Shown: piece by piece, positions 4,671 through 46,547 of the stretch | How positions within the stretch are numbered: position 1 is the first letter of the stretch | Layout: each line of letters starts with the position of its first letter | Assembly (NCBI GenBank): GCA_047621545.1 | Contig: JBLHMA010000001.1 | Location: 1 to 54,679, forward strand | Direction: 5' to 3' | Length of the DNA stretch: 54,679 nucleotides | From: Cognaticolwellia sp. | Lineage (GTDB): Bacteria > Myxococcota_A > UBA796 > CAJQPC01 | Position numbers and translations under genes: made by a program | The notes under the pieces: model-generated | What the model was told of the DNA's origin: nothing | What the model saw: only the letters and a program-made list of their open reading frames with translations | The model's database searches: none

Positions 4671-5122
4671 CCCTGCTTTTCTGGCTTGCCTGCAGCACCA
4701 CACCGAACACCACGGCCCCGTCCACCGGGCCGCCGCCGCCCGGCACCGTGATCACGACGACCGAGACCCTGGCCCAGCGCGTGCCCCTGCCAGAGGCGGT
4801 GGAGTCGGTTCGCTATCGACTGGACATGCTGGGTAGTCCCGGACTTGGGCCCACGGACTACCGGCTTGCCGCGTGGGTCAGCCTGTCCTCGGATGCGGAA
4901 GTGGAGTCGCTGTATGGCCCCTCGCTCAAGGTATCCCAGTCCCCGGAGATTTCTTCCACGGAAGCCGATCTTCTCCCACCCGACCTGCGCCCGGTGCCTA
5001 AGCACGGGGTGATGCGCTTGAACGGGGCGCTTCGACCCGGCGGGTCAGGAGGAAGCATGGTGGTAGACCAAGTGGTTCAGGTACACGGGCGCGGCGTTTT
5101 CATCTGGGCGCACACCCAATGA
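4667..5122 (+). CDS. Hypothetical lipoprotein
   Basis: MTLLFWLACSTT has a lipobox (LAC). The TTG start overlaps the upstream TGA (TTGA at 4667..4670). Its own stop overlaps the next ATG (ATGA at 5119..5122). I recognise no family motif. Confidence 0.5.
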   Translation: MTLLFWLACSTTPNTTAPSTGPPPPGTVITTTETLAQRVPLPEAVESVRYRLDMLGSPGLGPTDYRLAAWVSLSSDAEVESLYGPSLKVSQSPEISSTEADLLPPDLRPVPKHGVMRLNGALRPGGSGGSMVVDQVVQVHGRGVFIWAHTQ

Positions 5123-14763: not shown

Positions 14764-15546
14764 GTGCACCGCCTGAGAATCGGCGGCAAACAGGCCCTAG
14801 TCCGCACAGCTGGCCAAGGCCCCCCTTTGCTGCTCCTGCATGGGGTTCCCACGAGCTCTCTGCTCTTTCGGGACTGCGTTGAACCACTGGTCCAGGCAGG
14901 CTTTTCTCTGATCATGCCGGACCTGCCTGGCTACGGGGAGTCAGAAGGCATCGAGCCCGCTCTGCGTGTGCAGGATCACTTGGACTGGCTAGAGGAGCTC
15001 TTGGACCAGCTCAAGCTCACCCGCGTGCACGTGGCCGGCTTGGATCTGGGGGGCCTGCTCGCTGCCGGTCTCTGCCTTCGAGGCCGGGCTGAGCACGTCG
15101 CACTGACCAGCACCGCCATCGGGCCGGGCTGGTTGGCGGCTTGGGCCACAGCGCTTCCCGGCCCACACCTGTTCTTCTACAAGTTCTACGGAGGCAGGCG
15201 CTGGCTACAGCAGGGCGTAAACCCGGATCGCGCCGATGCCTTGCTGGCCCTGCACAGCCCCCGCCTGGAATCCGATCCCGGCTTTGTGGAGCGCATGCAG
15301 AACACCGCGCTGGCCTTTTCCTTCGGCGAGTGGCTGCGCTGGCCAAAAGAGCTGGCGGCGACCCCCAACCCCAAGCACCTGATCTGGGGCCAAGACGACC
15401 GCTTCTTCCCGCCCTGGATGGCCCGGCGCATCGCAGCCAACCTGGACTGCGGGATCACCTGGATCCCTCAGGGCCGCCACCACCTGCCCTTCGGACACCC
15501 CGCGGCCTGGAGTCGGGCCTTGATAGCGTTTTTGCCGAAGCCCTGA
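14764..15546 (+). CDS. Alpha/beta-fold hydrolase
   Basis: LLLLHGVPTSSLLFRD is the oxyanion region. A nucleophile-elbow-like HVAGLDLGG and a C-terminal His region (GRHHLPFGHP) are also present. Confidence 0.8.
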   Translation: MHRLRIGGKQALVRTAGQGPPLLLLHGVPTSSLLFRDCVEPLVQAGFSLIMPDLPGYGESEGIEPALRVQDHLDWLEELLDQLKLTRVHVAGLDLGGLLAAGLCLRGRAEHVALTSTAIGPGWLAAWATALPGPHLFFYKFYGGRRWLQQGVNPDRADALLALHSPRLESDPGFVERMQNTALAFSFGEWLRWPKELAATPNPKHLIWGQDDRFFPPWMARRIAANLDCGITWIPQGRHHLPFGHPAAWSRALIAFLPKP

Positions 15547-23487: not shown

Positions 23488-26115
23488 TCAGGGGGTTGCG
23501 CTGTAGCCGGGATCAGGCTCAGCCACAGTGGCCTCTTCCGTCGTGGCTCCTGAGGTGCCTTGGATCTGGGAGTTCAGCTCGTTGTAGTCGAGTCGGATCC
23601 TACCCTCTCCTCCATCTCCCCCGAGCCGAATGTGGGTGGACTCTCCAAATCCGCCTTCGGCCGAGACCGCCCCCGAGGCCAGGGTGAGCACATCCGCAAT
23701 CAGCCAGACGCTGCCACCTGCGCCGCCGCCTGCACCATAAGTGTAGCTGCCGGTGGACCAGTGAGGCGTGGTTCCGCCAACTGCCGTGATGCCGTCCGCA
23801 CCCTGTGCGTCGATCTCAAAGGCTGCGATGATGACCATTCCCGCGCCGTCGCCCCCGGGACCAGGGTTGCCGCTGCCCACCCAGACACCGCCTCCGCCAG
23901 AGCCAAAGAAGAGGCTGCTCAGGTCCGTGGCGCCGTAGGTGTCTCCGCCGTAGGGCGCCGTAGCGCTGCCGCCGGTCCAGGAGTCGCCATCTGTGGCTCC
24001 GCCGGCGTACTCGCCACCGCCGCCGGTGATGTGGGCGCCGCCGCCGCCATAGTTGTTGACCCAGTGCCCGTAGCTCTCGTTGTACGCGGTGCAGGCGCCG
24101 TCGCCGTCGCCGTCGCCTTCCCCGGCGTAGGACTCACCCTGAAAGGCATCACAGTTCGACGCGCTGCCTGTGGCCCCGCCGGCGTAGCCCAGCTCGGAGA
24201 CTTGGATTGCGCCGCCACTCTCGACCGTGACCGTTCCGGTCGCCCGGAACGCCAGCACGCCACCGGTGGACCCGTCCCAGACATCCACACTCAAGGTGCC
24301 GGCACTGGTGATGTCCACATCGGTGTACTGGGGGACCCGTTGAACCAGCACGGTCTGGTCGGTCAGATCGGCGTTGCTGCTGTCTCCGAAGGTCACTGAG
24401 GGCGTGCTGCTCAAGGTCACATCGGCACCCGAGACACTGGCGACCTCGACAAACTCGTAGTTGCCCACGTTGGTGTAGGCCGAATCCGAACCGTGCAGGT
24501 TGATGACCAGCAACTCATCGCCAGCCGCGATGCCATCGGCCGTTCCGTCGAGGGTCAGAACAGCACCCGAGATGCTGTCCACGTTGTAGCCAACCGCGTC
24601 CCCGTAGCTTCGCGAGCCGCTTGGGTCGGTGCTCAGGTTGGTGGAGCCGCTGACGCTCAGGGCGCCGTCGCCGCCGGAGCCCACCCAGGTGTTGTCGTCC
24701 ACCGTCCCGTCGCAGTCGTTGTCCACGCCGTCCAGGAGCTCGCGGGCGCCGGGGTAGGCCTCGGCGTCGGTGTCATCGCAGTCCGTGTCGTCGGCCACGT
24801 AGCCAGTGGGTTGATCGCACTCGACATCGCTGACGCTGGCGTCGCCATACGTGTCCGCGTCGGCATCGGCGTACCAAGTGCTGGCGTCCAGGGCGGTGTC
24901 CTCGTCGACGGCGCCATCGCAGTTGTCGTCCACCGTGTTGCAGTACTCGTCGGCGCCGGGGTTGATGCTCGCCTCGGAGTCATCACAATCGCTGCTGTCG
25001 CTGGTGTAGCCAGAAGGCGCGGAGCAGGCCGAGGTGGTGAAACTGGTGCCGCCATATCCGTCGGAGTCAAAGTCCAGGTAGAAGGTGGAGCCGTCGGTCA
25101 GCCCGGGGTCCCCATCGTCGATGTAGCCGTTGCAGTCGTTGTCGACGGTATCGCAGACCTCGGATGCAGCAGGGTTCACAGCCGAGTCGGAGTCATCACA
25201 GTCCTGGGCGTTGCCGACGTAGCCAGAGGGCGCCTCGCAGGCGGCCGAAGACGTGCTCGAGTCCCCATAGCCGTCGCTGTCTGCGTCCAAGTAAAAGTCG
25301 GCGGCGTCCACAGCAGTGTCGTTGTCGATGGTGCCGTCGCAGTCGTTGTCCACGCCGTCACAGATTTCGGTCCCGTCTGGAGAGACGGACGCATCGGCGT
25401 CGTCGCAGTCGCCCGACCTGTCCTCGTACCCGAGGGGAGGCTCGCAGGCGTCCAGAGTGGAATCTCCGCCCCAGCCATCGCCGTCACTGTCAGCGTAGAA
25501 GAGCTCCGTGACCCCCTCGTCTATCTGGCCATCACAGTTGTTGTCCGTTTCATCGCAGACCTCTTCCGCGGCGGGGTTGGTGCTGGCGACCAGGTCGTCA
25601 CAGTCGGTGTCGTCGACCACCCAGCCTGGTCCCGGATCGCACTCGTCCAGAGTGCTGCTGGCGTTGCCGTAGGTGTCCCCGTCCACGTCGGCGTACCAGA
25701 GCGTGTTCAGGTCGTTGTCGACCACGCCATCGCAGTCGTTGTCCACATCATCACAGCGCTCTGGCGCGCCCGGGAAGCTCTCGGCGTCCAGGTCATCGCA
25801 GTCCCCACCGACCGCTGCATACAGGGCGCCAGGGCTCTCGCAGGAGCGCAGATCGGTCCCGTCCAAGCCTGCGCCGTCGCCGTCCTTGTCTTCGTACCAG
25901 GCCGACGCGTCGGTGGCATCGGCGTCGATCACGCCATCGCAGTTGTTGTCCACGCCATCGCAGATCTCTTCTGCGCCCGGGTAGATCGCCGCATCGTCTG
26001 GGGCGCAGTCTTCGTCGTCGGGGATACCATCGGCGTCTTGGTCGGTGACCAGAGAGCCGGTGTCCACTGCAACATCTTTGGTTCTACAGGCGAGTGAGAG
26101 CAAGAGCAGGAACAT
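23488..26115 (-). CDS. MopE-like lipoprotein: 7 'putative metal-binding motif' repeats plus Gly-rich beta-helix-like C-terminal domain
   Basis: MFLLLLSLACRT has a lipobox. Seven units of DCDDxDxxxxPGAxExCDGxDNDCDGxxD alternate with DxDGDGYG-like segments. The C-terminal region is rich in GGGG / GxG. Confidence 0.85.
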   Translation of the reverse strand: MFLLLLSLACRTKDVAVDTGSLVTDQDADGIPDDEDCAPDDAAIYPGAEEICDGVDNNCDGVIDADATDASAWYEDKDGDGAGLDGTDLRSCESPGALYAAVGGDCDDLDAESFPGAPERCDDVDNDCDGVVDNDLNTLWYADVDGDTYGNASSTLDECDPGPGWVVDDTDCDDLVASTNPAAEEVCDETDNNCDGQIDEGVTELFYADSDGDGWGGDSTLDACEPPLGYEDRSGDCDDADASVSPDGTEICDGVDNDCDGTIDNDTAVDAADFYLDADSDGYGDSSTSSAACEAPSGYVGNAQDCDDSDSAVNPAASEVCDTVDNDCNGYIDDGDPGLTDGSTFYLDFDSDGYGGTSFTTSACSAPSGYTSDSSDCDDSEASINPGADEYCNTVDDNCDGAVDEDTALDASTWYADADADTYGDASVSDVECDQPTGYVADDTDCDDTDAEAYPGARELLDGVDNDCDGTVDDNTWVGSGGDGALSVSGSTNLSTDPSGSRSYGDAVGYNVDSISGAVLTLDGTADGIAAGDELLVINLHGSDSAYTNVGNYEFVEVASVSGADVTLSSTPSVTFGDSSNADLTDQTVLVQRVPQYTDVDITSAGTLSVDVWDGSTGGVLAFRATGTVTVESGGAIQVSELGYAGGATGSASNCDAFQGESYAGEGDGDGDGACTAYNESYGHWVNNYGGGGAHITGGGGEYAGGATDGDSWTGGSATAPYGGDTYGATDLSSLFFGSGGGGVWVGSGNPGPGGDGAGMVIIAAFEIDAQGADGITAVGGTTPHWSTGSYTYGAGGGAGGSVWLIADVLTLASGAVSAEGGFGESTHIRLGGDGGEGRIRLDYNELNSQIQGTSGATTEEATVAEPDPGYSATP

Positions 26116-26204
26116 GATGGATAGGCCTCCGGGGCAGGAACACTACCAATCCTCGACACAAAGAGGTTGGAAATTCGCTACGCTGCTGCCGTTAGGAGAG
26201 ACCG

Positions 26205-27164
26205 ATGCTGCTTCTTACAACTCTGACGCTTACCGGCCCAGCCAGGGCTCAAGCCCCACCCCCCATGGTGAACGGGGAGCTCACCAGTGAGCACCCTCAG
26301 GTTGGCGCTCTGGTCGTACTGAGCGGACAAGGCGGCGGTTCCTTCTGCTCCGGAACCCTGATTCATCCTGAGTGGGTCCTGACTGCCGGGCACTGCGTCA
26401 TCCCGGCCGAAGACTATGACAACGCTGGAGCCCGCGTCCTGTTTTACATGGCGCCGAACGTCTACGTACAGGAAGACGTTGTTGGGTACGCGGACGCGGA
26501 CGAGTTCTACGTTCACCCCACTTACAAGGGCGAGAGTTCGATCGGCAGCGCCTGGGATCTGGGGCTTCTGCATCTGGAGACCCCGATCACGGCGGTCCCT
26601 CCCATGCCGCTCAACACGGACGATATGACCGACTGGGTGGGAGAGATCATCACCTTCCTGGGCTACGGCGTCACTTCGGACAACGGCAGCGGCAGCGGAA
26701 TCAAGCGCAAGACGAACATCCCGATCCGACCCGAGACCAACGACGTGGTCATCTACGCCTATGACCCGGTTCAGAACCTGTGTTCGGGCGACTCAGGGGG
26801 CGGCGGCCTCCGCCAGGACGACGCGACGGGTGCGTGGGAGATCGTTGGGGTGAACTCCTTTGTCTTTGCCGTCCAGAGCAGCAACTCCCTCTGCGTCGGC
26901 GGTGGCTCCGGCTCCGCCCGCATCGACACCGCCATGGAGTGGATCGAGGGCTACGTGCCACTGGACGAGGTGAGCTTTGGGGCCCCGGCCCTGGACGTGG
27001 ACGACCCGATGTACATCGATACGGGTGACCCCTCGGACCCCTACGACAACGACATGGTCGCTGAAGAGCCCGGTCTGTTTGGCTGCAGTCAGGTGCCCGG
27101 TGGCAGCTCCCTCTGGGTCGTGGCCATGGCCATGGGCGGCTTGCTGCTCCGGCGGCGGGACTGA
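26205..27164 (+). CDS. Secreted trypsin-like (S1) serine protease with MYXO-CTERM tail
   Basis: MVNGELT, LTAGHC (His), WDLGLLHL (Asp), CSGDSGGG (Ser). The tail is FGCSQVPGGSSLWVVAMAMGGLLLRRRD. AGGAGA lies upstream of the ATG. Confidence 0.9.
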   Translation: MLLLTTLTLTGPARAQAPPPMVNGELTSEHPQVGALVVLSGQGGGSFCSGTLIHPEWVLTAGHCVIPAEDYDNAGARVLFYMAPNVYVQEDVVGYADADEFYVHPTYKGESSIGSAWDLGLLHLETPITAVPPMPLNTDDMTDWVGEIITFLGYGVTSDNGSGSGIKRKTNIPIRPETNDVVIYAYDPVQNLCSGDSGGGGLRQDDATGAWEIVGVNSFVFAVQSSNSLCVGGGSGSARIDTAMEWIEGYVPLDEVSFGAPALDVDDPMYIDTGDPSDPYDNDMVAEEPGLFGCSQVPGGSSLWVVAMAMGGLLLRRRD

Positions 27165-28054
27165 CTTCAGAGCATCAGGACCCGGCGCAGCCGAGCCTAC
27201 AACCACTCCGCGTCACCGAGCTCTTCTGCGGCATTGGCGGTCTTGCAGCGGCGTTGCCTCCCCACTCTGACGTGTTGGCTGTAGACCAGTCAGAGCTGGC
27301 CCGTCAGAGCTACGCCCACAACTTTGCAGAGGCACCAAAGGCTTGGAATATCGCAGGCATAAAAACCCTGCCTTCAAGCGATCTGCTCTGGCTCTCTCCC
27401 CCATGTCAGCCCTACACTCAACGGGGCGAGCAGCGGGACTTGGCCGACAAACGCTCTGCGGCGCTGCTTCGGGTCTGCTCGCTGATTCCCGACGCTCAGC
27501 CCCGCTCTGTGGGCCTGGAGAATGTGCCCCAGTTTCAGGGGTCTGAGGGCCATGCACGCTTCTTGGAGTCCCTGGATGGCTACCAGATCTGGCAGGGGGT
27601 GCTCTGCCCCAGCCAGCTTGGCATTCCCAACAAGCGGCGCAGGTTCTACGTCCTGGCCTCGCGTTTGGGACCGGTCTCAGAGCCTGTCTTGGCACCCGAG
27701 AATCTGGGCCTGGGCCAGTACCTGGATCCGCACCCAGATCCCAGCCTCTTCCTACCAGACGAGGACACCACACGCCTACTCGGCGTGCTGCCCATCATCA
27801 CCCTGACGCAGTGCAGCGAGACCTTCACCAGCGGCTATGGGCGCAGCCTGCTCAGAGCGGGCTCCCTACTGCGCACCTCCGATGGGCGTGTCAGGCGCTT
27901 CTCACCCACTGAGATTCTGCGTTTGCATGGCTTTCCAGCAGACTTTGAGCTGGCCCCTGGCTTGGACCGGGTCAAGGAGTACAAGCTGGTGGGGAACAGC
28001 CTGAGTGTGCCCGTGGTGCGCGTGCTCTTGCGCGCTTTGGGGCTGGGTCAGTAG
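27161..28054 (+). CDS. Dnmt2/TRDMT1-like C5-cytosine methyltransferase (probable tRNA methyltransferase); start codon unresolved
   Basis: Motifs: I ELFCGIGG (27218..27241), IV SPPCQPYT, VI LENV, VIII IPNKRRRFY, TRD TFTSGYG, then RRFSPTEILRLHGFP and GNSLSVPVV. The first canonical start (TTG 27254, the ORF track start) lies downstream of motif I. CTG 27161 is the only near-cognate candidate and forms CTGA with the trypsin stop. The stop coordinate is secure. The start is not. Confidence 0.75.
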   Translation: MTSEHQDPAQPSLQPLRVTELFCGIGGLAAALPPHSDVLAVDQSELARQSYAHNFAEAPKAWNIAGIKTLPSSDLLWLSPPCQPYTQRGEQRDLADKRSAALLRVCSLIPDAQPRSVGLENVPQFQGSEGHARFLESLDGYQIWQGVLCPSQLGIPNKRRRFYVLASRLGPVSEPVLAPENLGLGQYLDPHPDPSLFLPDEDTTRLLGVLPIITLTQCSETFTSGYGRSLLRAGSLLRTSDGRVRRFSPTEILRLHGFPADFELAPGLDRVKEYKLVGNSLSVPVVRVLLRALGLGQ

Positions 28055-28056
28055 AC

Positions 28057-30471
28057 TCAGGGCTTGTTCGCCAAGGCGCGCACATCCGCAGGTGAGAGCC
28101 CTTCCGCCAAGCTGCGGGGCTCGGGTGGATGCGTCCCCAGAGAACGGGCCAGAGCACGGCGGCCCAGCCAAGCCAAGGTGCGCCAGCCGTTGTTGCCCGC
28201 CTCGATAACCACCTGGTTGGCGCGCTCCTGGGCCGCCGCGCGATCCCCCGCCTCCAGGCCGGCCTGGGCCAGCTGTAGCTGAATCCGCAGCCGCAGCACG
28301 GTGGGGGCCAGGTCCAGCACAGCATGGGCACGCTGAACAGCCTTCTCGTAGCCGCGCCGGTCTCCAATGCGGGCAGCACAGCGGGCCTGAATGGCGGCCG
28401 CCAGGGCAGACTCCACGGGTCCGATGGGCGCCTCGACCCGGTTCAACGCGCGGCCCACCCGGTCCAGGGCAGAGCTGGCCGCAGCGCGGGAGTCCGGCCG
28501 CTTGTCTAAGGTGGCCACGGCGCGCCAGAGGTGGGCCACACGGCGCTCATGGGGCCGGTCTTGGGCGCGGGCCAAAGCAACGGCATCGGCCAACCGGGCC
28601 TCGGCCAAGCGCAGCTGGCCCTGCTCCAACAAGATCAGTCCCATGCCGGCCTGAAGATCCATCTCCAGCGTGGGGTTTCGCTCCGCACGGGAGCTCTTGA
28701 TCAAGGCCTCGCAGGCCCGACGCGCCCCAGCGAGGACCCCCGAGAGGTGCAGGTCCATGGCCAGGTTCAAACGCTGACCAGGCTCTTGCTCCCCACGCGC
28801 TGGACGGGCTGGCGCGTCCTCGGCCCGGGCATCACCACAGGCCACCAGGTGGTGGTGGGCCTCGAAGTGCATCTCTCGATCTTCAAGGGCCAGCGCTGCC
28901 CGACGGTGCATGGCGTTCAGGTCTGGCAGGGCCTGCAGCGCTGCGCGCGCCACCAAGCGGCCGACCGGTGTGCTCCTGGAGGCGTGGGTGCGCAGCAGGC
29001 CTTCCTCCTCCAGCAGCATCAAGATGTCCTTGCACGGGATTAGGGCGACCTCCTCGACGAGCGCACGATCCGGCGGCTGGCGCAGGATGCAGACCGCGCA
29101 GAGCACGTCGAGCGCCTCCAAAGGGAGCTCCTCCACAGCCTCGATCAGGCGGCCTGGAGGCTCCAAGGGCACAGGCAACTCCAAGACCTTGCCCTGGCGG
29201 TGCTCGGCCAAGGTCGCCAAGAGCCAAGCGGGATGCCCACCGGTGGCCCGGTACAGGCGCTCGGCCACCAGGTGCGGCTCGGGGGTGTCGGGCCCCATGG
29301 AGACCACGGTACGGCGCAGATCCGCTGGGCCGACTGGCTCCAAGATGATGCGCACCGTCTCCACGTCGTCGGGCAGGCGAAAGCGGGTGGCGATCGCCAT
29401 GACCTCGCCGGCGCGCATCCGCCTTAGGCCGGCCGTCAGTGTGGGTTTGTCTCGCGCCACCAGGAGCGGCACCCCCAGAGTGCCAGCCAGCTCTTCGGCC
29501 ACCTCCAGCAGCCAAGAACGCCCAGATCCCGACACTCCCACAGACTGAATGGCCACCGCACGGCCCTGTTTGACCTGTTGCAGAGCCTCGCGAACCGCGT
29601 CCACGTACCGCTGCCGTCCAGCGAGAGGAGGAGGCGCCTTGGCCCCGCCCGTTGCCTGGAGAGCGCGCTTGGCCTGGCGGGCATTTGCTGGGCGGTCCTT
29701 GGCTTTCTTGGCCATCAACTTGAGAATGGCCAGCTCGAGCGCTGGGGGCACGCTGGGGTCGATGGCGCTGGGCTGCGGGATAGGCTCGTGCAGATGGGCG
29801 TAGACCACCTTGTCCCGCTCACGCCTGGGGTAGGGCGGCTGGCCGGTCAGCAGCGCGAACAGGGTGCAGCCCAGCCCATATAGGTCCGCGCGTCCGTCCA
29901 CCGGCTCACCGCGCAGCTGCTCGGGGGCGCAGTAGTTGGTCGTGCCGATCAGAGTGCCGGCGCGGGTGCGCTCCAGCTCCTCGGGATCCCGAATCACCCC
30001 AAAGTCGGAGAGCGCTACACGCCCGTTGGACTCCAGCAACACATTGGAGGGCTTTACGTCGCGGTGCACGATGTCCAGGTCATGCACAACGGCCAAGGCA
30101 TCGCAGAGGGCCACTCCAATGCGCTGGGTCTCGCGGTAGCGCTCGTGGGCTGGCCGCAGACGCAGCTTGTCGGCGTACACGAACAGGTCCTGGCCTTCGA
30201 CATACTCGATGACCATGTAGGGGCGGCCCTCGAAGTGGCCATCGTCGATGTAGCGCACGATGTTGGGGTGCTTGAGGCGCTTGAGCGCACGGATCTCCCC
30301 GGCAAAGCGCTGGACCACCCGGCCGGTCCCCTTGTCGAGCCACTTGACCGCAACCTCGACCCCGCGGGGGTCCACAGCCAGGTAGACCGCAGCCATACCG
30401 CCACGGCCCAAGAGGCGTAGAGGCAGGTAGGGGCCAATGGCCTCTGGGAAGGTGCTCGTTTGCTCAGACAT
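28057..30471 (-). CDS. Ser/Thr kinase fused to a degenerate P-loop NTPase and helical-repeat region (K2)
   Basis: GRGGMAAVY, VAVKWL, HRDVKPSNVL, DFGVIR, NYCAPEQ. Walker A-like GVSGSGRS has an Arg codon at 29518..29520. An Ala/Leu/Arg-rich TPR-like tail follows. Its stop lies 2 nt from the convergent methyltransferase stop. Confidence 0.9.
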   Translation of the reverse strand: MSEQTSTFPEAIGPYLPLRLLGRGGMAAVYLAVDPRGVEVAVKWLDKGTGRVVQRFAGEIRALKRLKHPNIVRYIDDGHFEGRPYMVIEYVEGQDLFVYADKLRLRPAHERYRETQRIGVALCDALAVVHDLDIVHRDVKPSNVLLESNGRVALSDFGVIRDPEELERTRAGTLIGTTNYCAPEQLRGEPVDGRADLYGLGCTLFALLTGQPPYPRRERDKVVYAHLHEPIPQPSAIDPSVPPALELAILKLMAKKAKDRPANARQAKRALQATGGAKAPPPLAGRQRYVDAVREALQQVKQGRAVAIQSVGVSGSGRSWLLEVAEELAGTLGVPLLVARDKPTLTAGLRRMRAGEVMAIATRFRLPDDVETVRIILEPVGPADLRRTVVSMGPDTPEPHLVAERLYRATGGHPAWLLATLAEHRQGKVLELPVPLEPPGRLIEAVEELPLEALDVLCAVCILRQPPDRALVEEVALIPCKDILMLLEEEGLLRTHASRSTPVGRLVARAALQALPDLNAMHRRAALALEDREMHFEAHHHLVACGDARAEDAPARPARGEQEPGQRLNLAMDLHLSGVLAGARRACEALIKSSRAERNPTLEMDLQAGMGLILLEQGQLRLAEARLADAVALARAQDRPHERRVAHLWRAVATLDKRPDSRAAASSALDRVGRALNRVEAPIGPVESALAAAIQARCAARIGDRRGYEKAVQRAHAVLDLAPTVLRLRIQLQLAQAGLEAGDRAAAQERANQVVIEAGNNGWRTLAWLGRRALARSLGTHPPEPRSLAEGLSPADVRALANKP

Positions 30472-44118: not shown

Positions 44119-44545
44119 GTCAACAGGCGAAGCGCTGCTCAGCACTCCGGCTCCCTTTGGCAAGATCCGCGGCATCCTGGTGGCCATGGCCGTCTTCTGG
44201 GCTCTAATGAGCCTGGTGACCGTCTACGGGAACACCCAGCTCAGCGCGGAGGATCTCGGGGACACCCCTCTCTGGGCCACAGTCGCGGCCCCCGCTTTTG
44301 TGGGGCTATTCTCCGCCCTGGCCGCGTGGCGCACCCGCCCCGGAGACCGCCAAGGCTGGGGTTTGGGGGTCAGCGCAATGGCCCTAAACCTTCTTGGCTG
44401 CGTCACCGCACCTCTGGCCATCTGGGGCATCCTTATGCTCTTTAAGCCAACTACAAAGGCACAGATGCTCGGGGGCCGCTTTGCAAAGCCCCTTCCCCAA
44501 CGGGGTTTAGCTGCGACGCCGCCGGAGCCCAAGCAGACCGACTAA
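44111..44545 (+). CDS. Small integral membrane protein coupled to the PP2C gene
   Basis: ATG 44111 overlaps the PP2C stop by 8 nt. Three or four hydrophobic helices are present (ILVAMAVFWALMSLVTV, LWATVAAPAFVGLFSALAAW, VSAMALNLLGCVTAPLAIWGILMLF). Its 3' end overlaps the convergent trypsin gene by 39 nt. Confidence 0.5.
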   Translation: MTESTGEALLSTPAPFGKIRGILVAMAVFWALMSLVTVYGNTQLSAEDLGDTPLWATVAAPAFVGLFSALAAWRTRPGDRQGWGLGVSAMALNLLGCVTAPLAIWGILMLFKPTTKAQMLGGRFAKPLPQRGLAATPPEPKQTD

Positions 44546-45493
44546 GCCCAGGGCCCACCAGCCCGAGGGGCTGCCCTGACTGCAGCCACCACACTCCGCA
44601 GCCTGGCCACCGTCGCGGTCCCCGCCAGTGTCCGCGTCCGTCTCTTCCAGCACGCCGGAGTCAGAGTCCGCGTCGGTGTCCGTGTCTGTATCGCTGTCCG
44701 AGTACGCGTCCGTGTCGCTGTCCCCTTCCAGCTCAAACTCCACGTGCTCCTCCAGGAACTCCAGCTCGCGGTCGATGCGAACCGCAGCCGCGCCCGGCTT
44801 GCCTGAGTCACAGTCAATTGCTCCTTCATCCATGTCGAAGACAAAGGTGTTCACCCCGACCAGCTCCCAGCTGTCGGTGTCCGGATCCTTCCACATCGCG
44901 GCCCCACCAGAGTCTCCGCTACACACGTTCTTGGATTCCCCGTCCGCGTAGGTGTAGACAAAGTTGTTGTCAGAGAAGTAGATGGGGACATTGACCTTTC
45001 GGCGAGTGCCGCCACTGTCGGCCTTGTCTGAGTCGGTCAACCCGTAGCCCACGTAGGTGAGGTTTTCTCCCACGTCGCTCGTGACCAAAGCCTGGGTGTT
45101 CAGAGACATGGTCCCAAAGTCTTGGATGCCCGACTCCAGGTAGAGCACAGCGATGTCGTGATGGGCGGTCTGCGCACTGTAGTCCGGATGCGCGTACATG
45201 GACTTGATCTCAGCCGAGGCCTCCCAAGAGTCCGCGATCTGGTCGGCCACCACAAAGTACAAGGTGTATCCGGCCCCCTGGTACCCCTCTGCAGCCTCTA
45301 CGCAGTGGGCTGCCGTGATCACACGACGGGCAGCAACCAAGGTCCCGCTGCAGAAGCTGCCCGCGAAACCACCTTTCTCCGCCACAAAGGCGCCCACCTG
45401 CTTGTAGGGGTGGCCGCTGACCTGGCTGCCACCAACGATTGGAGGAGGGGTCACGGCGAAAGCCACGGACAGAAACGGGGTGATCAGAAGCAT
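44507..45493 (-). CDS. Secreted trypsin-like (S1) serine protease with acidic linker and MYXO-CTERM tail
   Basis: PPPIVGGS, ITAAHC, HDIAVLYL, CSGDSGGA. The linker is DSDTDAYSDSDTDTDTDADSDSG. The tail is CGGCSQGSPSGWWALGLVGLLGLRRRRS. Confidence 0.9.
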   Translation of the reverse strand: MLLITPFLSVAFAVTPPPIVGGSQVSGHPYKQVGAFVAEKGGFAGSFCSGTLVAARRVITAAHCVEAAEGYQGAGYTLYFVVADQIADSWEASAEIKSMYAHPDYSAQTAHHDIAVLYLESGIQDFGTMSLNTQALVTSDVGENLTYVGYGLTDSDKADSGGTRRKVNVPIYFSDNNFVYTYADGESKNVCSGDSGGAAMWKDPDTDSWELVGVNTFVFDMDEGAIDCDSGKPGAAAVRIDRELEFLEEHVEFELEGDSDTDAYSDSDTDTDTDADSDSGVLEETDADTGGDRDGGQAAECGGCSQGSPSGWWALGLVGLLGLRRRRS

Positions 45494-45542: not shown

Positions 45543-46547
45543 CTAAGCGCGGCGCCGGCGAAGCAGCAATAGGCCGAAGGCGCCCACCAAGCCCAACCAT
45601 CCAGCCGGGCCAGGCTGAGCGGAACAACCCAACAGACCGCCGCTTTCTTCACGGCTAAACGTCGGACGCGGGGGGCCTGCCGTGTCACCTGTCTCCCAGT
45701 TGGGATCGCTGTCTGCATCCGAATCGGAGTCGGAGTCGGAGTCGGCGTCCGAGTCGGTGTCGGAGTCCGAGTCGGCATCGGTGTCTGCGTCCAGGTCGCC
45801 AGCCGGCACGTAGTCGGTGATGAAGCTCCACTGGCTGTCGGTCCGGGAGGAGCCTGCTGCAGCGCCCTGGCGGTCACAGTCAGGCTGGCCCCCATTCTTG
45901 TTGTAGCCAAAGGAGTTGGCGCCGACTAGCTTTTGGGTGCCACCCAGGGTCATCAGTGCTGCGCCACCTGAATCACCGGAGCAGATGTTCTGAATGGTGC
46001 CCGAGTTCCCGCTGTAGGTGTAGATGATGGTGGAAGCGTAGCCATCGTAAGGCACGTCCACCGTACGCTTTACACCACCGTCATTCCGGTCATCGGAGGT
46101 GATCCCAAAACCGACATAGGTCACGTCCTTGGTGCTCCAAGAGCTGGCCGGGGACGAGCGGTTCACCGGCATTGGCGTGATGGACGTGATGCTCGTCTTG
46201 AGCTCCAACAGGCCCAGGTCGTGCTCCAGGGTGCTCGTGTTGTAGCTGGGGTGAGCGATGGCCCGCTTGACCTCGGCGTAATCCTGCCAAGAACTCTCGT
46301 TGTACACGTCGCTGGCAAACACGAAGTACACGTCCCAGCCTGCGTCCCAGTATTCATCGGCGGCCTCTACACAGTGGGCCGCGGTGATGACCCACTTTTG
46401 GGTGACCAGCGTTCCCGAGCAGAAGCTGCCGCCCGAGCTTCCCGCGATGGCCACCATGGATCCCACAGCAGGAAAACTGCTGGTGGTGCTGCCGTTGACT
46501 ATCGGCGGCGGCGTGTTGGCTAGAGCAAGGGACGTAAGCAGAAGCAT
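45543..46547 (-). CDS. Secreted trypsin-like (S1) serine protease with acidic linker and MYXO-CTERM tail
   Basis: PPPIVNGS, ITAAHC, HDLGLLEL, CSGDSGGA. The linker is DADTDADSDSDTDSDADSDSDSDSDADSD. The tail is GCSAQPGPAGWLGLVGAFGLLLLRRRRA. Confidence 0.9.
   Translation of the reverse strand: MLLLTSLALANTPPPIVNGSTTSSFPAVGSMVAIAGSSGGSFCSGTLVTQKWVITAAHCVEAADEYWDAGWDVYFVFASDVYNESSWQDYAEVKRAIAHPSYNTSTLEHDLGLLELKTSITSITPMPVNRSSPASSWSTKDVTYVGFGITSDDRNDGGVKRTVDVPYDGYASTIIYTYSGNSGTIQNICSGDSGGAALMTLGGTQKLVGANSFGYNKNGGQPDCDRQGAAAGSSRTDSQWSFITDYVPAGDLDADTDADSDSDTDSDADSDSDSDSDADSDPNWETGDTAGPPRPTFSREESGGLLGCSAQPGPAGWLGLVGAFGLLLLRRRRA

Follow-up and report, generated by a model that had tools for sequence, protein, structure and literature searches.

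The 54,679-nt stretch of DNA analysed here (the window, to which all coordinates refer) carries a gene for a secreted trypsin-like serine protease followed on the same strand by an open reading frame (ORF) for a cytosine-C5 methyltransferase of the Dnmt2 family. The two genes meet in the sequence gaCTGAc (27159-27165), in which a CTG codon of the methyltransferase frame (27161-27163) overlaps the TGA stop of the protease (27162-27164), as the original prediction for this DNA had pointed out. No canonical start codon precedes the first conserved motif of the methyltransferase in its frame, and the overlapping CTG is considered here as its candidate start. The features of the locus are collected in Table 1; offsets in orthologous loci are counted from the T of the protease stop.

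A methyltransferase frame behind a protease gene

The original prediction had traced the methyltransferase frame back to an in-frame stop at 27026-27028. This codon is in frame, but the nearest stop is the TGA at 27062-27064. The accompanying statement that no start intervenes before TTG 27254 holds: there is no ATG, GTG or TTG among the codons of this frame from 27065 to 27253, nor in any of the frames between 27142 and 27233. Near-cognate codons in the open frame are limited to three CTGs (27083, 27113 and 27161), the last being the only one 3' of the final codons of the protease. It is followed by a variable spacer that is probably an N-terminal extension (TSEHQDPAQPSLQPLR) and then by motif I, within the peptide QPLRVTELFCGIGG encoded at 27200-27241. 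Translation of the frame also recovered all the other Dnmt2 motifs listed in the original prediction, including RRFSPTEILRLHGFP.

The C-terminus of the protease consists of a Gly-Cys motif, a hydrophobic helix and a cluster of Arg residues. This tail (EEPGLFGCSQVPGG..LLLRRRD), which is kept in all orthologues, matches the MYXO-CTERM model TIGR03382 (18.8 bits, cutoff 15.85) and scores 17.3 bits against TIGR03901, under the cutoff of 20. The G+C content at third codon positions is 0.74 in the methyltransferase (27161-28051) and ~0.80 in the flanking genes, a mild difference.

As the original prediction had anticipated, automatic annotation yields a protein devoid of motif I. The public product (P0001), called identically by NCBI and by the Joint Genome Institute (JGI), has 266 aa and begins at TTG 27254. 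Across the group of orthologues the automatic calls take at least nine lengths (203, 230, 245, 256, 260/261, 266/267, 269, 286/287, 304 and 317 aa) and the majority of them lack motif I; in one locus (L093) the gene caller passed over an in-frame GTG available 5' of this motif. A protein deprived of its S-adenosylmethionine (AdoMet)-binding motif in most calls would be misjudged as inactive or be mis-clustered.

Table 1. Features of the protease-methyltransferase junction and its surroundings (window coordinates, except where an orthologous locus is named)
Feature	Position	Strand	Evidence or remark
Trypsin-like serine protease, secreted, with MYXO-CTERM tail	26205..27164	+	Pfam Trypsin 1.3e-19
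Closest in-frame stop TGA 5' of the methyltransferase	27062..27064	+	Frame open from 27065
In-frame CTG at -79	27083..27085	+	From GGC TGC, Gly-Cys of the sorting signal
In-frame CTG at -49	27113..27115	+	From CTC TGG (Leu-Trp) of the protease
Candidate start CTG	27161..27163	+	CTGA overlap with the protease stop; '-4 nt' NTGA geometry, N = C
Full Dnmt2-family methyltransferase ORF as proposed	27161..28054	+	297 codons and stop TAG 28052-28054
Protease stop TGA	27162-27164	+	Sequence
Variable spacer, probably N-terminal extension	27164..27211	+	No start-like codon
Motif I VTELFCGIGG (strand beta-1 and FxGxG AdoMet-binding loop)	27212..27241	+	Pfam DNA_methylase alignment begins here
TTG, first canonical and annotated start	27254..27256	+	3' of motif I; 266-aa call
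Motif IV SPPCQPYT	27395-27418	+	Translation
Motif VI LENV	27515-27526	+	Translation
Motif VIII IPNKRRRFY	27623-27649	+	Translation
Target recognition domain motif TFTSGYGRS	27821-27847	+	Translation
RRFSPTEILRLHGFP	27893-27937	+	Translation
Motif X GNSLSVPVV	27992-28018	+	Translation
Ser/Thr protein kinase, 804 aa, convergent neighbour	28057..30471	-	Pfam Pkinase 6.6e-44; not an endonuclease
ORF of 120-136 aa without Pfam match, in orthologous loci	L001:4871-5260, L006:1276-1686, L007:4339-4725, L008:2713-3075	-	Orthologous loci

Family membership and selection

The ORF at 27161-28054 is an intact, selected member of the Dnmt2 family of cytosine-C5 methyltransferases. The protein matches the methyltransferase family PF00145 of Pfam (6e-33), and in a single-sequence search its best matches among solved structures were human DNMT2 (7e-33), S. 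pombe Pmt1, Entamoeba EhMeth and Spodoptera DNMT2, with the DNA methyltransferase M.HhaI (2e-19) below all the Dnmt2 structures. Similarly, a profile of the bacterial family aligned with Dnmt2 over its full length, including the target recognition domain (TRD) (positions 4-292, 3e-70, 240 bits), whereas the alignment with HhaI covered only the N-terminal two-thirds (positions 5-200, 1.7e-34, 123 bits). Motifs I (FxGxG), IV (PPCQ), VI (ENV), VIII (RxR) and X (GNS) are present in canonical order. In an alignment of 51 homologues G24-G27, P80-Q83, E120-V122, R159, R161 and N279 are invariant, and G278 and S280 of the GNS motif are conserved in at least 90% of the sequences.

An AlphaFold2 (AF2) model built on this alignment had a mean predicted local distance difference test score (pLDDT) of 93.9 and a predicted TM-score (pTM) of 0.90. 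Foldseek comparison of the model placed Dnmt2 structures (EhMeth, human DNMT2 and Pmt1) at ranks 1-8, with TM-scores of 0.78-0.85, and HhaI close behind at 0.77. The model assigns residues 17-21 to strand beta-1 and residues 22-27 to the FxGxG loop; consequently, a protein begun at residue 32 (TTG 27254) would have neither. The mean pLDDT was 67 for residues 1-10, the spacer corresponding to residues 2-17, compared with 91-98 for residues 11-80.

The likeness to eukaryotic Dnmt2/TRDMT1 (human 1G55 and 9HGM, Pmt1 6FDF, EhMeth 3QV2), best by sequence, profile and predicted fold alike, extends to the shared elements PPCQP[FY]T, ENV, PN.R.R[FY][FY], [CT]FT..YG and GNSL.V. In contrast, identity to the eukaryotic enzymes is just 26-31%, and the bacterial protein is shorter, without the ~25-residue TRD insertion, and has Thr in place of the Cys of the CFT motif. 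The CFT motif of the TRD (CFTxxYxxY) has been described as defining Dnmt2 (PMC4041430). In the window sequence TFTSGYGRS the F, T, Y and G are conserved, with Thr for the first Cys and Ser for the second Tyr; of the 51 bacterial family members, 40 begin the motif with Cys and 11 with Thr. Holophaga is reported to have CFI.

A DNA methyltransferase of the restriction-modification or Dcm type was considered as an alternative identity and rejected, in agreement with the original prediction. Such enzymes share the fold and the catalytic motifs, but they rank below Dnmt2 in the sequence and profile searches, and no endonuclease or Vsr gene adjoins the methyltransferase in the window or in any orthologous locus, the neighbours being the protease and Ser/Thr kinases. 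Among the NCBIfam models only the generic dcm superfamily model was matched, marginally below its cutoff (100.4 bits, cutoff 100.65), a result that does not discriminate.

A bacterial point of comparison is the Dnmt2 of Geobacter sulfurreducens (GSU0227), which methylates C38 of tRNA-Glu (Shanmugam et al. 2014, PMC4041430). A homologue from Geobacter argillaceus, found in the same family scan, shows 45% identity over the full length (E 1e-68) and has Dnmt2 as its own best match; the sequence comparison with Geobacter was made on this protein. Like the Geobacter enzyme, the window protein is a single-domain orphan of similar size and identical motif order without a restriction partner; unlike it, the proteins of the window clade carry TFT for CFT, are encoded behind a protease and lack a canonical start. 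By analogy, the enzyme is probably a tRNA C38 methyltransferase. A tRNA scan of the window found no tRNA genes, and a scan of the window against Rfam gave no match.

A protein search revealed a tight clade of orthologues at 78-86% identity, after which identity falls to ~50%. DNA sequences were available for nine lineages of this clade (window/L096, L001/L014/L093, L007, L009, L010, L011/L013, L094, L006/L095 and L008), which share, where the contigs reach, the gene order MopE-repeat protein, protease, methyltransferase and kinase. A metagenome scan for further orthologues added two loci, both from an already sampled lineage. Pairwise synonymous divergence (dS) among the nine lineages is 0.55-0.97 and the ratio of nonsynonymous to synonymous divergence (dN/dS) 0.13-0.18. 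In the 14 codons from the start of motif I to TTG 27254 we counted 298 synonymous and 24 nonsynonymous pairwise differences, all the latter tracing to a single Cys to Ser change in L008. Because change 5' of the annotated start is almost exclusively synonymous, motif I is translated in these organisms. At otherwise conserved sites, changes specific to the window lineage number 15 synonymous to 10 nonsynonymous, where neutral evolution would give ~1 to 2.8, and a lineage with a canonical GTG has 13 to 9; these sequence comparisons give no sign of decay of the gene in the window lineage. Since motif I is required for AdoMet binding and is conserved as protein, the true N-terminus must lie 5' of 27212, which makes the 266-aa annotation from TTG 27254 a mis-call.

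Start codons and gene neighbourhood in nine lineages

No canonical start occurs at a position common to all nine lineages. Three of them have none in frame: the start-like codons are limited to CTG at -79, -49 and -1 in the window and L096, to CTG at -49, -1, +11 and +26 in L010, and to CTG at -41 and +4 in L008. The others differ in what they offer, namely ATG at -79 in L007, GTG at -79 in L009, GTG at -79 and -49 in L011/L013, ATG at -79 with GTG at -49 in L094, TTG at -83 in L006/L095, and GTG at +14 in L001/L014/L093, in which a TAG at -76 closes the frame. At -79 the orthologues have ATG or GTG, or else CTG with TAG as the next codon; a TAG in this place occurs in four lineages. The codons at -79, -49 and -1 are made up of GGN TGC, CTN TGG and GAC TGA of the MYXO-CTERM tail of the protease, in which N is synonymous for the protease; the start codons at -79 and -49 are thus by-products of protease coding.

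The only start-like codon common to every lineage is an in-frame CTG adjacent to the protease stop, located at -1 (gaCTGA) in seven lineages and at +4 (TGAgCTG) in two. The NTGA overlap is kept in frame in the former seven, with C as N throughout the 14 loci examined. In L006 and L008, where the junction reads gacTGAgCTGagc, the frame is offset by +1 rather than -1 and it is the second CTG that is in frame; this looks like a duplication of CTGAG.

The original prediction had named a plain ATG just 5' of motif I in orthologues, together with reads pointing to an error here, as evidence against an unusual start; no such ATG was found. The codon in question, seventh in front of the Val of VTELF, is represented by GTG in one lineage (the L001 group) and by CTG in five (L007, L009, L010, L011/L013/L094 and L006). 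For the L011 group and for L006, this CTG and the stop-adjacent one are the same codon. The homologous window codon is CAG (27176), followed by 15 extra in-frame bases, and the window therefore keeps only the CTG that overlaps the stop.

The spacer from the stop to this Val varies in length (50, 35, 44, 35, 32 and 20 nt in one group of lineages, 25 and 31 nt in the other). Of six spacer indels inferred on an identity-based tree, five are multiples of three (neutral chance ~0.02), and the sixth shifts the frame and yet leaves a CTG in frame beside the stop. Three of the in-frame indels lie 5' of the NTG at the seventh codon, an argument for translation from the CTG beside the stop.

Canonical starts are the rule in the wider family, being present in 68 of 70 scored loci, typically in the context M-R-V-L-E-L-F. 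The two without one are a Myxococcota metagenome-assembled genome (MAG) (L033:2456-2536), in which ATT takes the place of the usual Met codon, 8 nt past the TAA of the upstream gene, and an Acidimicrobiia MAG (L043:212-262), with CTG CTG six codons past an in-frame TGA.

Several further features of the neighbourhood were recorded. On the other side of the protease, an 875-aa protein (23488-26115, minus strand) contains at least seven MopE-type putative metal-binding repeats (PF11617, 3e-66), and in its C-terminal half it is similar to the N-domain of the gliding motility protein AgmC (85 bits, below the model cutoff); the gene adjoins the protease in orthologous loci too. Between the methyltransferase and the 804-aa kinase, four orthologous loci contain the 120-136 aa minus-strand ORF of Table 1, which is missing in the window (28055-28060), L096 and L093, where the stops of the two genes are 2-9 nt apart. 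Elsewhere in the window, two more genes for trypsin-like proteases are arranged in tandem on the minus strand (44507-45493 and 45543-46547), and an ORF at 14764-15546 (plus strand) has 172 open in-frame codons before its first canonical start, GTG 14764, so that its true start may differ. The public record assigns the contig to Cognaticolwellia sp. (Colwelliaceae, Gammaproteobacteria), and the G+C content of the window is 64.3%. With a MYXO-CTERM tail, an AgmC-like MopE-repeat protein and very large Ser/Thr kinases, the contig looks mis-binned and derived from a Myxococcota-like, uncultured organism.

Candidate reinitiation at CUG 27161 and its alternatives

In the mechanism that we favour, ribosomes finishing the protease ORF would re-initiate at CUG 27161 within the CTGA overlap, and the weakness of this near-cognate codon would keep methyltransferase synthesis at a low level. 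CTG is a rare, recognised start under genetic code table 11. NTGA is the commonest spacing of coupled genes, and reinitiation takes place at whichever start lies closest to the stop (PMC12548453, PMC6728339). Initiation at CUG in E. coli amounts to ~1-2% of that at AUG (bioRxiv 10.1101/063800), a plausible level for a tRNA-modifying enzyme. From the comparison of sequences, we regard as evenly balanced the case that the methyltransferase is translated by termination-reinitiation at CUG 27161, with regard both to the use of this start and to its coupling to the protease. The extension to the clade as a whole, in which a functional Dnmt2-family gene would have been kept for long (synonymous divergence 0.6-1.0) with a CUG start read by reinitiation at CTGA, is advanced tentatively, with slightly more doubt than belief.

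The original prediction had likened the CTGA junction to ATGA couplings elsewhere in the window, and these overlaps are real, those at 5119, 11399 and 39117 lying on the plus strand and those at 1386-1389 and 2060-2063 reading TCAT on the plus strand and so ATGA on the minus strand; TTGA overlaps also occur at gene pairs of the window. A scan of 26000-28300 found no promoter-like site, and its sole terminator-like match falls within the protease gene and is oriented to the minus strand. RNAalifold gave no convincing conserved RNA structure at the junction (-11.2 kcal/mol, covariation term +0.43, one compensatory pair). As in the NTGA pairs described previously (Huber et al. 2019, PMC6728339; PMC12548453), the candidate start ends in the two bases with which the upstream TGA begins, and the genes are co-directional with no signals between them. 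Unlike in those pairs, N is C, giving a near-cognate CUG instead of AUG, GUG or UUG, and the genes encode a secreted protease and a cytoplasmic RNA/DNA methyltransferase, not subunits of one complex. Another comparison is with E. coli infC, which starts with the non-canonical AUU. The candidate gene would share with genes of this type a conserved weak start codon and a product needed in small amounts; unlike in infC, autoregulatory logic is not evident and the codon is CUG, for which documented cases are rare.

Several observations weigh against reinitiation at CUG 27161. A canonical in-frame start of some kind is available in six of the nine lineages, and might be used there instead. The CTG at -1 is dictated by GAC TGA of the protease, both codons being preferred choices in this genome (GAC 74%, TGA 69%), so that its conservation could be wholly the protease's and alone proves little. 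No Shine-Dalgarno-like sequence was found before CTG 27161, although such a sequence precedes roughly half of the window's other genes. The indel statistic is modest (~p = 0.02) and rests on an inferred phylogeny, and the base composition of the spacer by codon position looks non-coding, over only 16 codons. Furthermore, a CUG of Caulobacter dnaA that gave a toeprint in vitro was non-functional in vivo (PMC8443254), an example of how candidate CUGs can mislead.

An alternative that we consider unlikely is a turnover of start codons, in which each lineage uses its own canonical start and the window, L010 and L008 have lost theirs, leaving a gene that is silent or barely expressed and heading towards a pseudogene. 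The canonical starts of six lineages would be accounted for in this way, as would the mutation to CAG of the window codon homologous to the GTG or CTG of the seventh position, and bases other than C at the wobble position of the -79 Gly codon are somewhat commoner than the 55% usage of GGC predicts. Against such turnover, all three independent start-less lineages keep an intact ORF of ~840 nt free of frameshifts and stops, and the ratio of synonymous to nonsynonymous changes on the window branch (15:10) matches that of the GTG lineage (13:9). Moreover, the canonical starts are scattered over four unrelated positions, the -79 codon runs straight into a TAG in four lineages, and the synonymous diversity (pS) of the protease tail (0.45) is about that of the protease body (0.48), so that a second coding layer in the tail is not indicated.

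The last observation bears equally on a less probable alternative, to which we give little credence, namely initiation by ordinary 30S binding at CTG 27083 or 27113 inside the protease gene, producing an N-terminal tail longer by 26 or 16 residues. These are near-cognate codons within the open frame, the -79 codon is ATG or GTG in several orthologues, and a GAAGAG sequence (GAGGAG in L093 and L006) is found ~14-19 nt 5' of it. This purine-rich stretch is, however, too distant for a normal Shine-Dalgarno interaction, and initiation there would compete with ribosomes elongating through the protease ORF. In addition, the TAG after -79 closes the frame in four lineages, the frame is different in the two with the +1 offset, and dual-coding constraint on the protease tail is lacking.

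Two further explanations appear very improbable. Since the contig derives from a metagenome-assembled genome, an error of sequencing or assembly might conceal a normal ATG or GTG start, a possibility that the original prediction had itself raised. A separately assembled contig (L096, from Logan SRR28416806) is nevertheless 100% identical to the window over 25935-30054 (4,120 nt), and the absent start is therefore not an assembly artefact; L010 and L008, from independent samples, also lack a canonical start, and with no ATG, GTG or TTG in any frame at 27142-27233 a single indel could not provide one. A programmed ribosomal frameshift late in the protease gene would dispense with a start codon by creating a protease-methyltransferase fusion. 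In every lineage the open methyltransferase frame extends back into the protease ORF, and residues past the helix of the sorting signal would face the cytoplasm. Nevertheless, the lineages differ in frame offset (-1 in seven, +1 in two), there is neither a slippery heptamer nor a conserved downstream RNA structure, and the MYXO-CTERM tail is a sorting signal whose removal is expected. Finally, it is scarcely credible that the annotated 266-aa product is the true protein and works without motif I: it does begin at the first canonical start, as called by NCBI and JGI, but it would miss strand beta-1 and the FxGxG AdoMet loop, the segment 5' of its TTG is conserved as protein with almost only synonymous change, and most orthologues have CTG or CTC in place of the TTG itself.

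The enzyme adds a new member to a known family, whose reputed rarity in bacteria, repeated in the original prediction, is outdated. Papers from 2014-2016 counted 'very few' bacterial Dnmt2 proteins and inferred a transfer from eukaryotes (PMC4041430, PMC5699548); when we searched the literature for a more recent survey, only unrelated papers on community profiling came up. In our genome scan (loci L013-L092), Dnmt2-like homologues at 39-48% identity were found in 372 species-representative genomes, and a protein search for relatives returned at least 575 clusters. The genomes include those of Thermoanaerobaculia and other Acidobacteriota, Pirellulaceae and other Planctomycetota, Myxococcota, Bradymonadales (Lujinxingia vulgaris) and Geobacter, a wide bacterial spread that bears on the proposed acquisition of Dnmt2 by Geobacter from eukaryotes.

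What is new here is the comparative pattern, in which a clade keeps a selected gene without a common canonical start and the sole common candidate is a CUG in the NTGA position. If CUG 27161 is used, the locus would provide a conserved natural case of reinitiation on a near-cognate codon, set in the stop-start overlap that is commonest among prokaryotes; if the same holds for the clade, termination-reinitiation on a non-canonical start would have been conserved in nature, possibly selected to keep the enzyme scarce.

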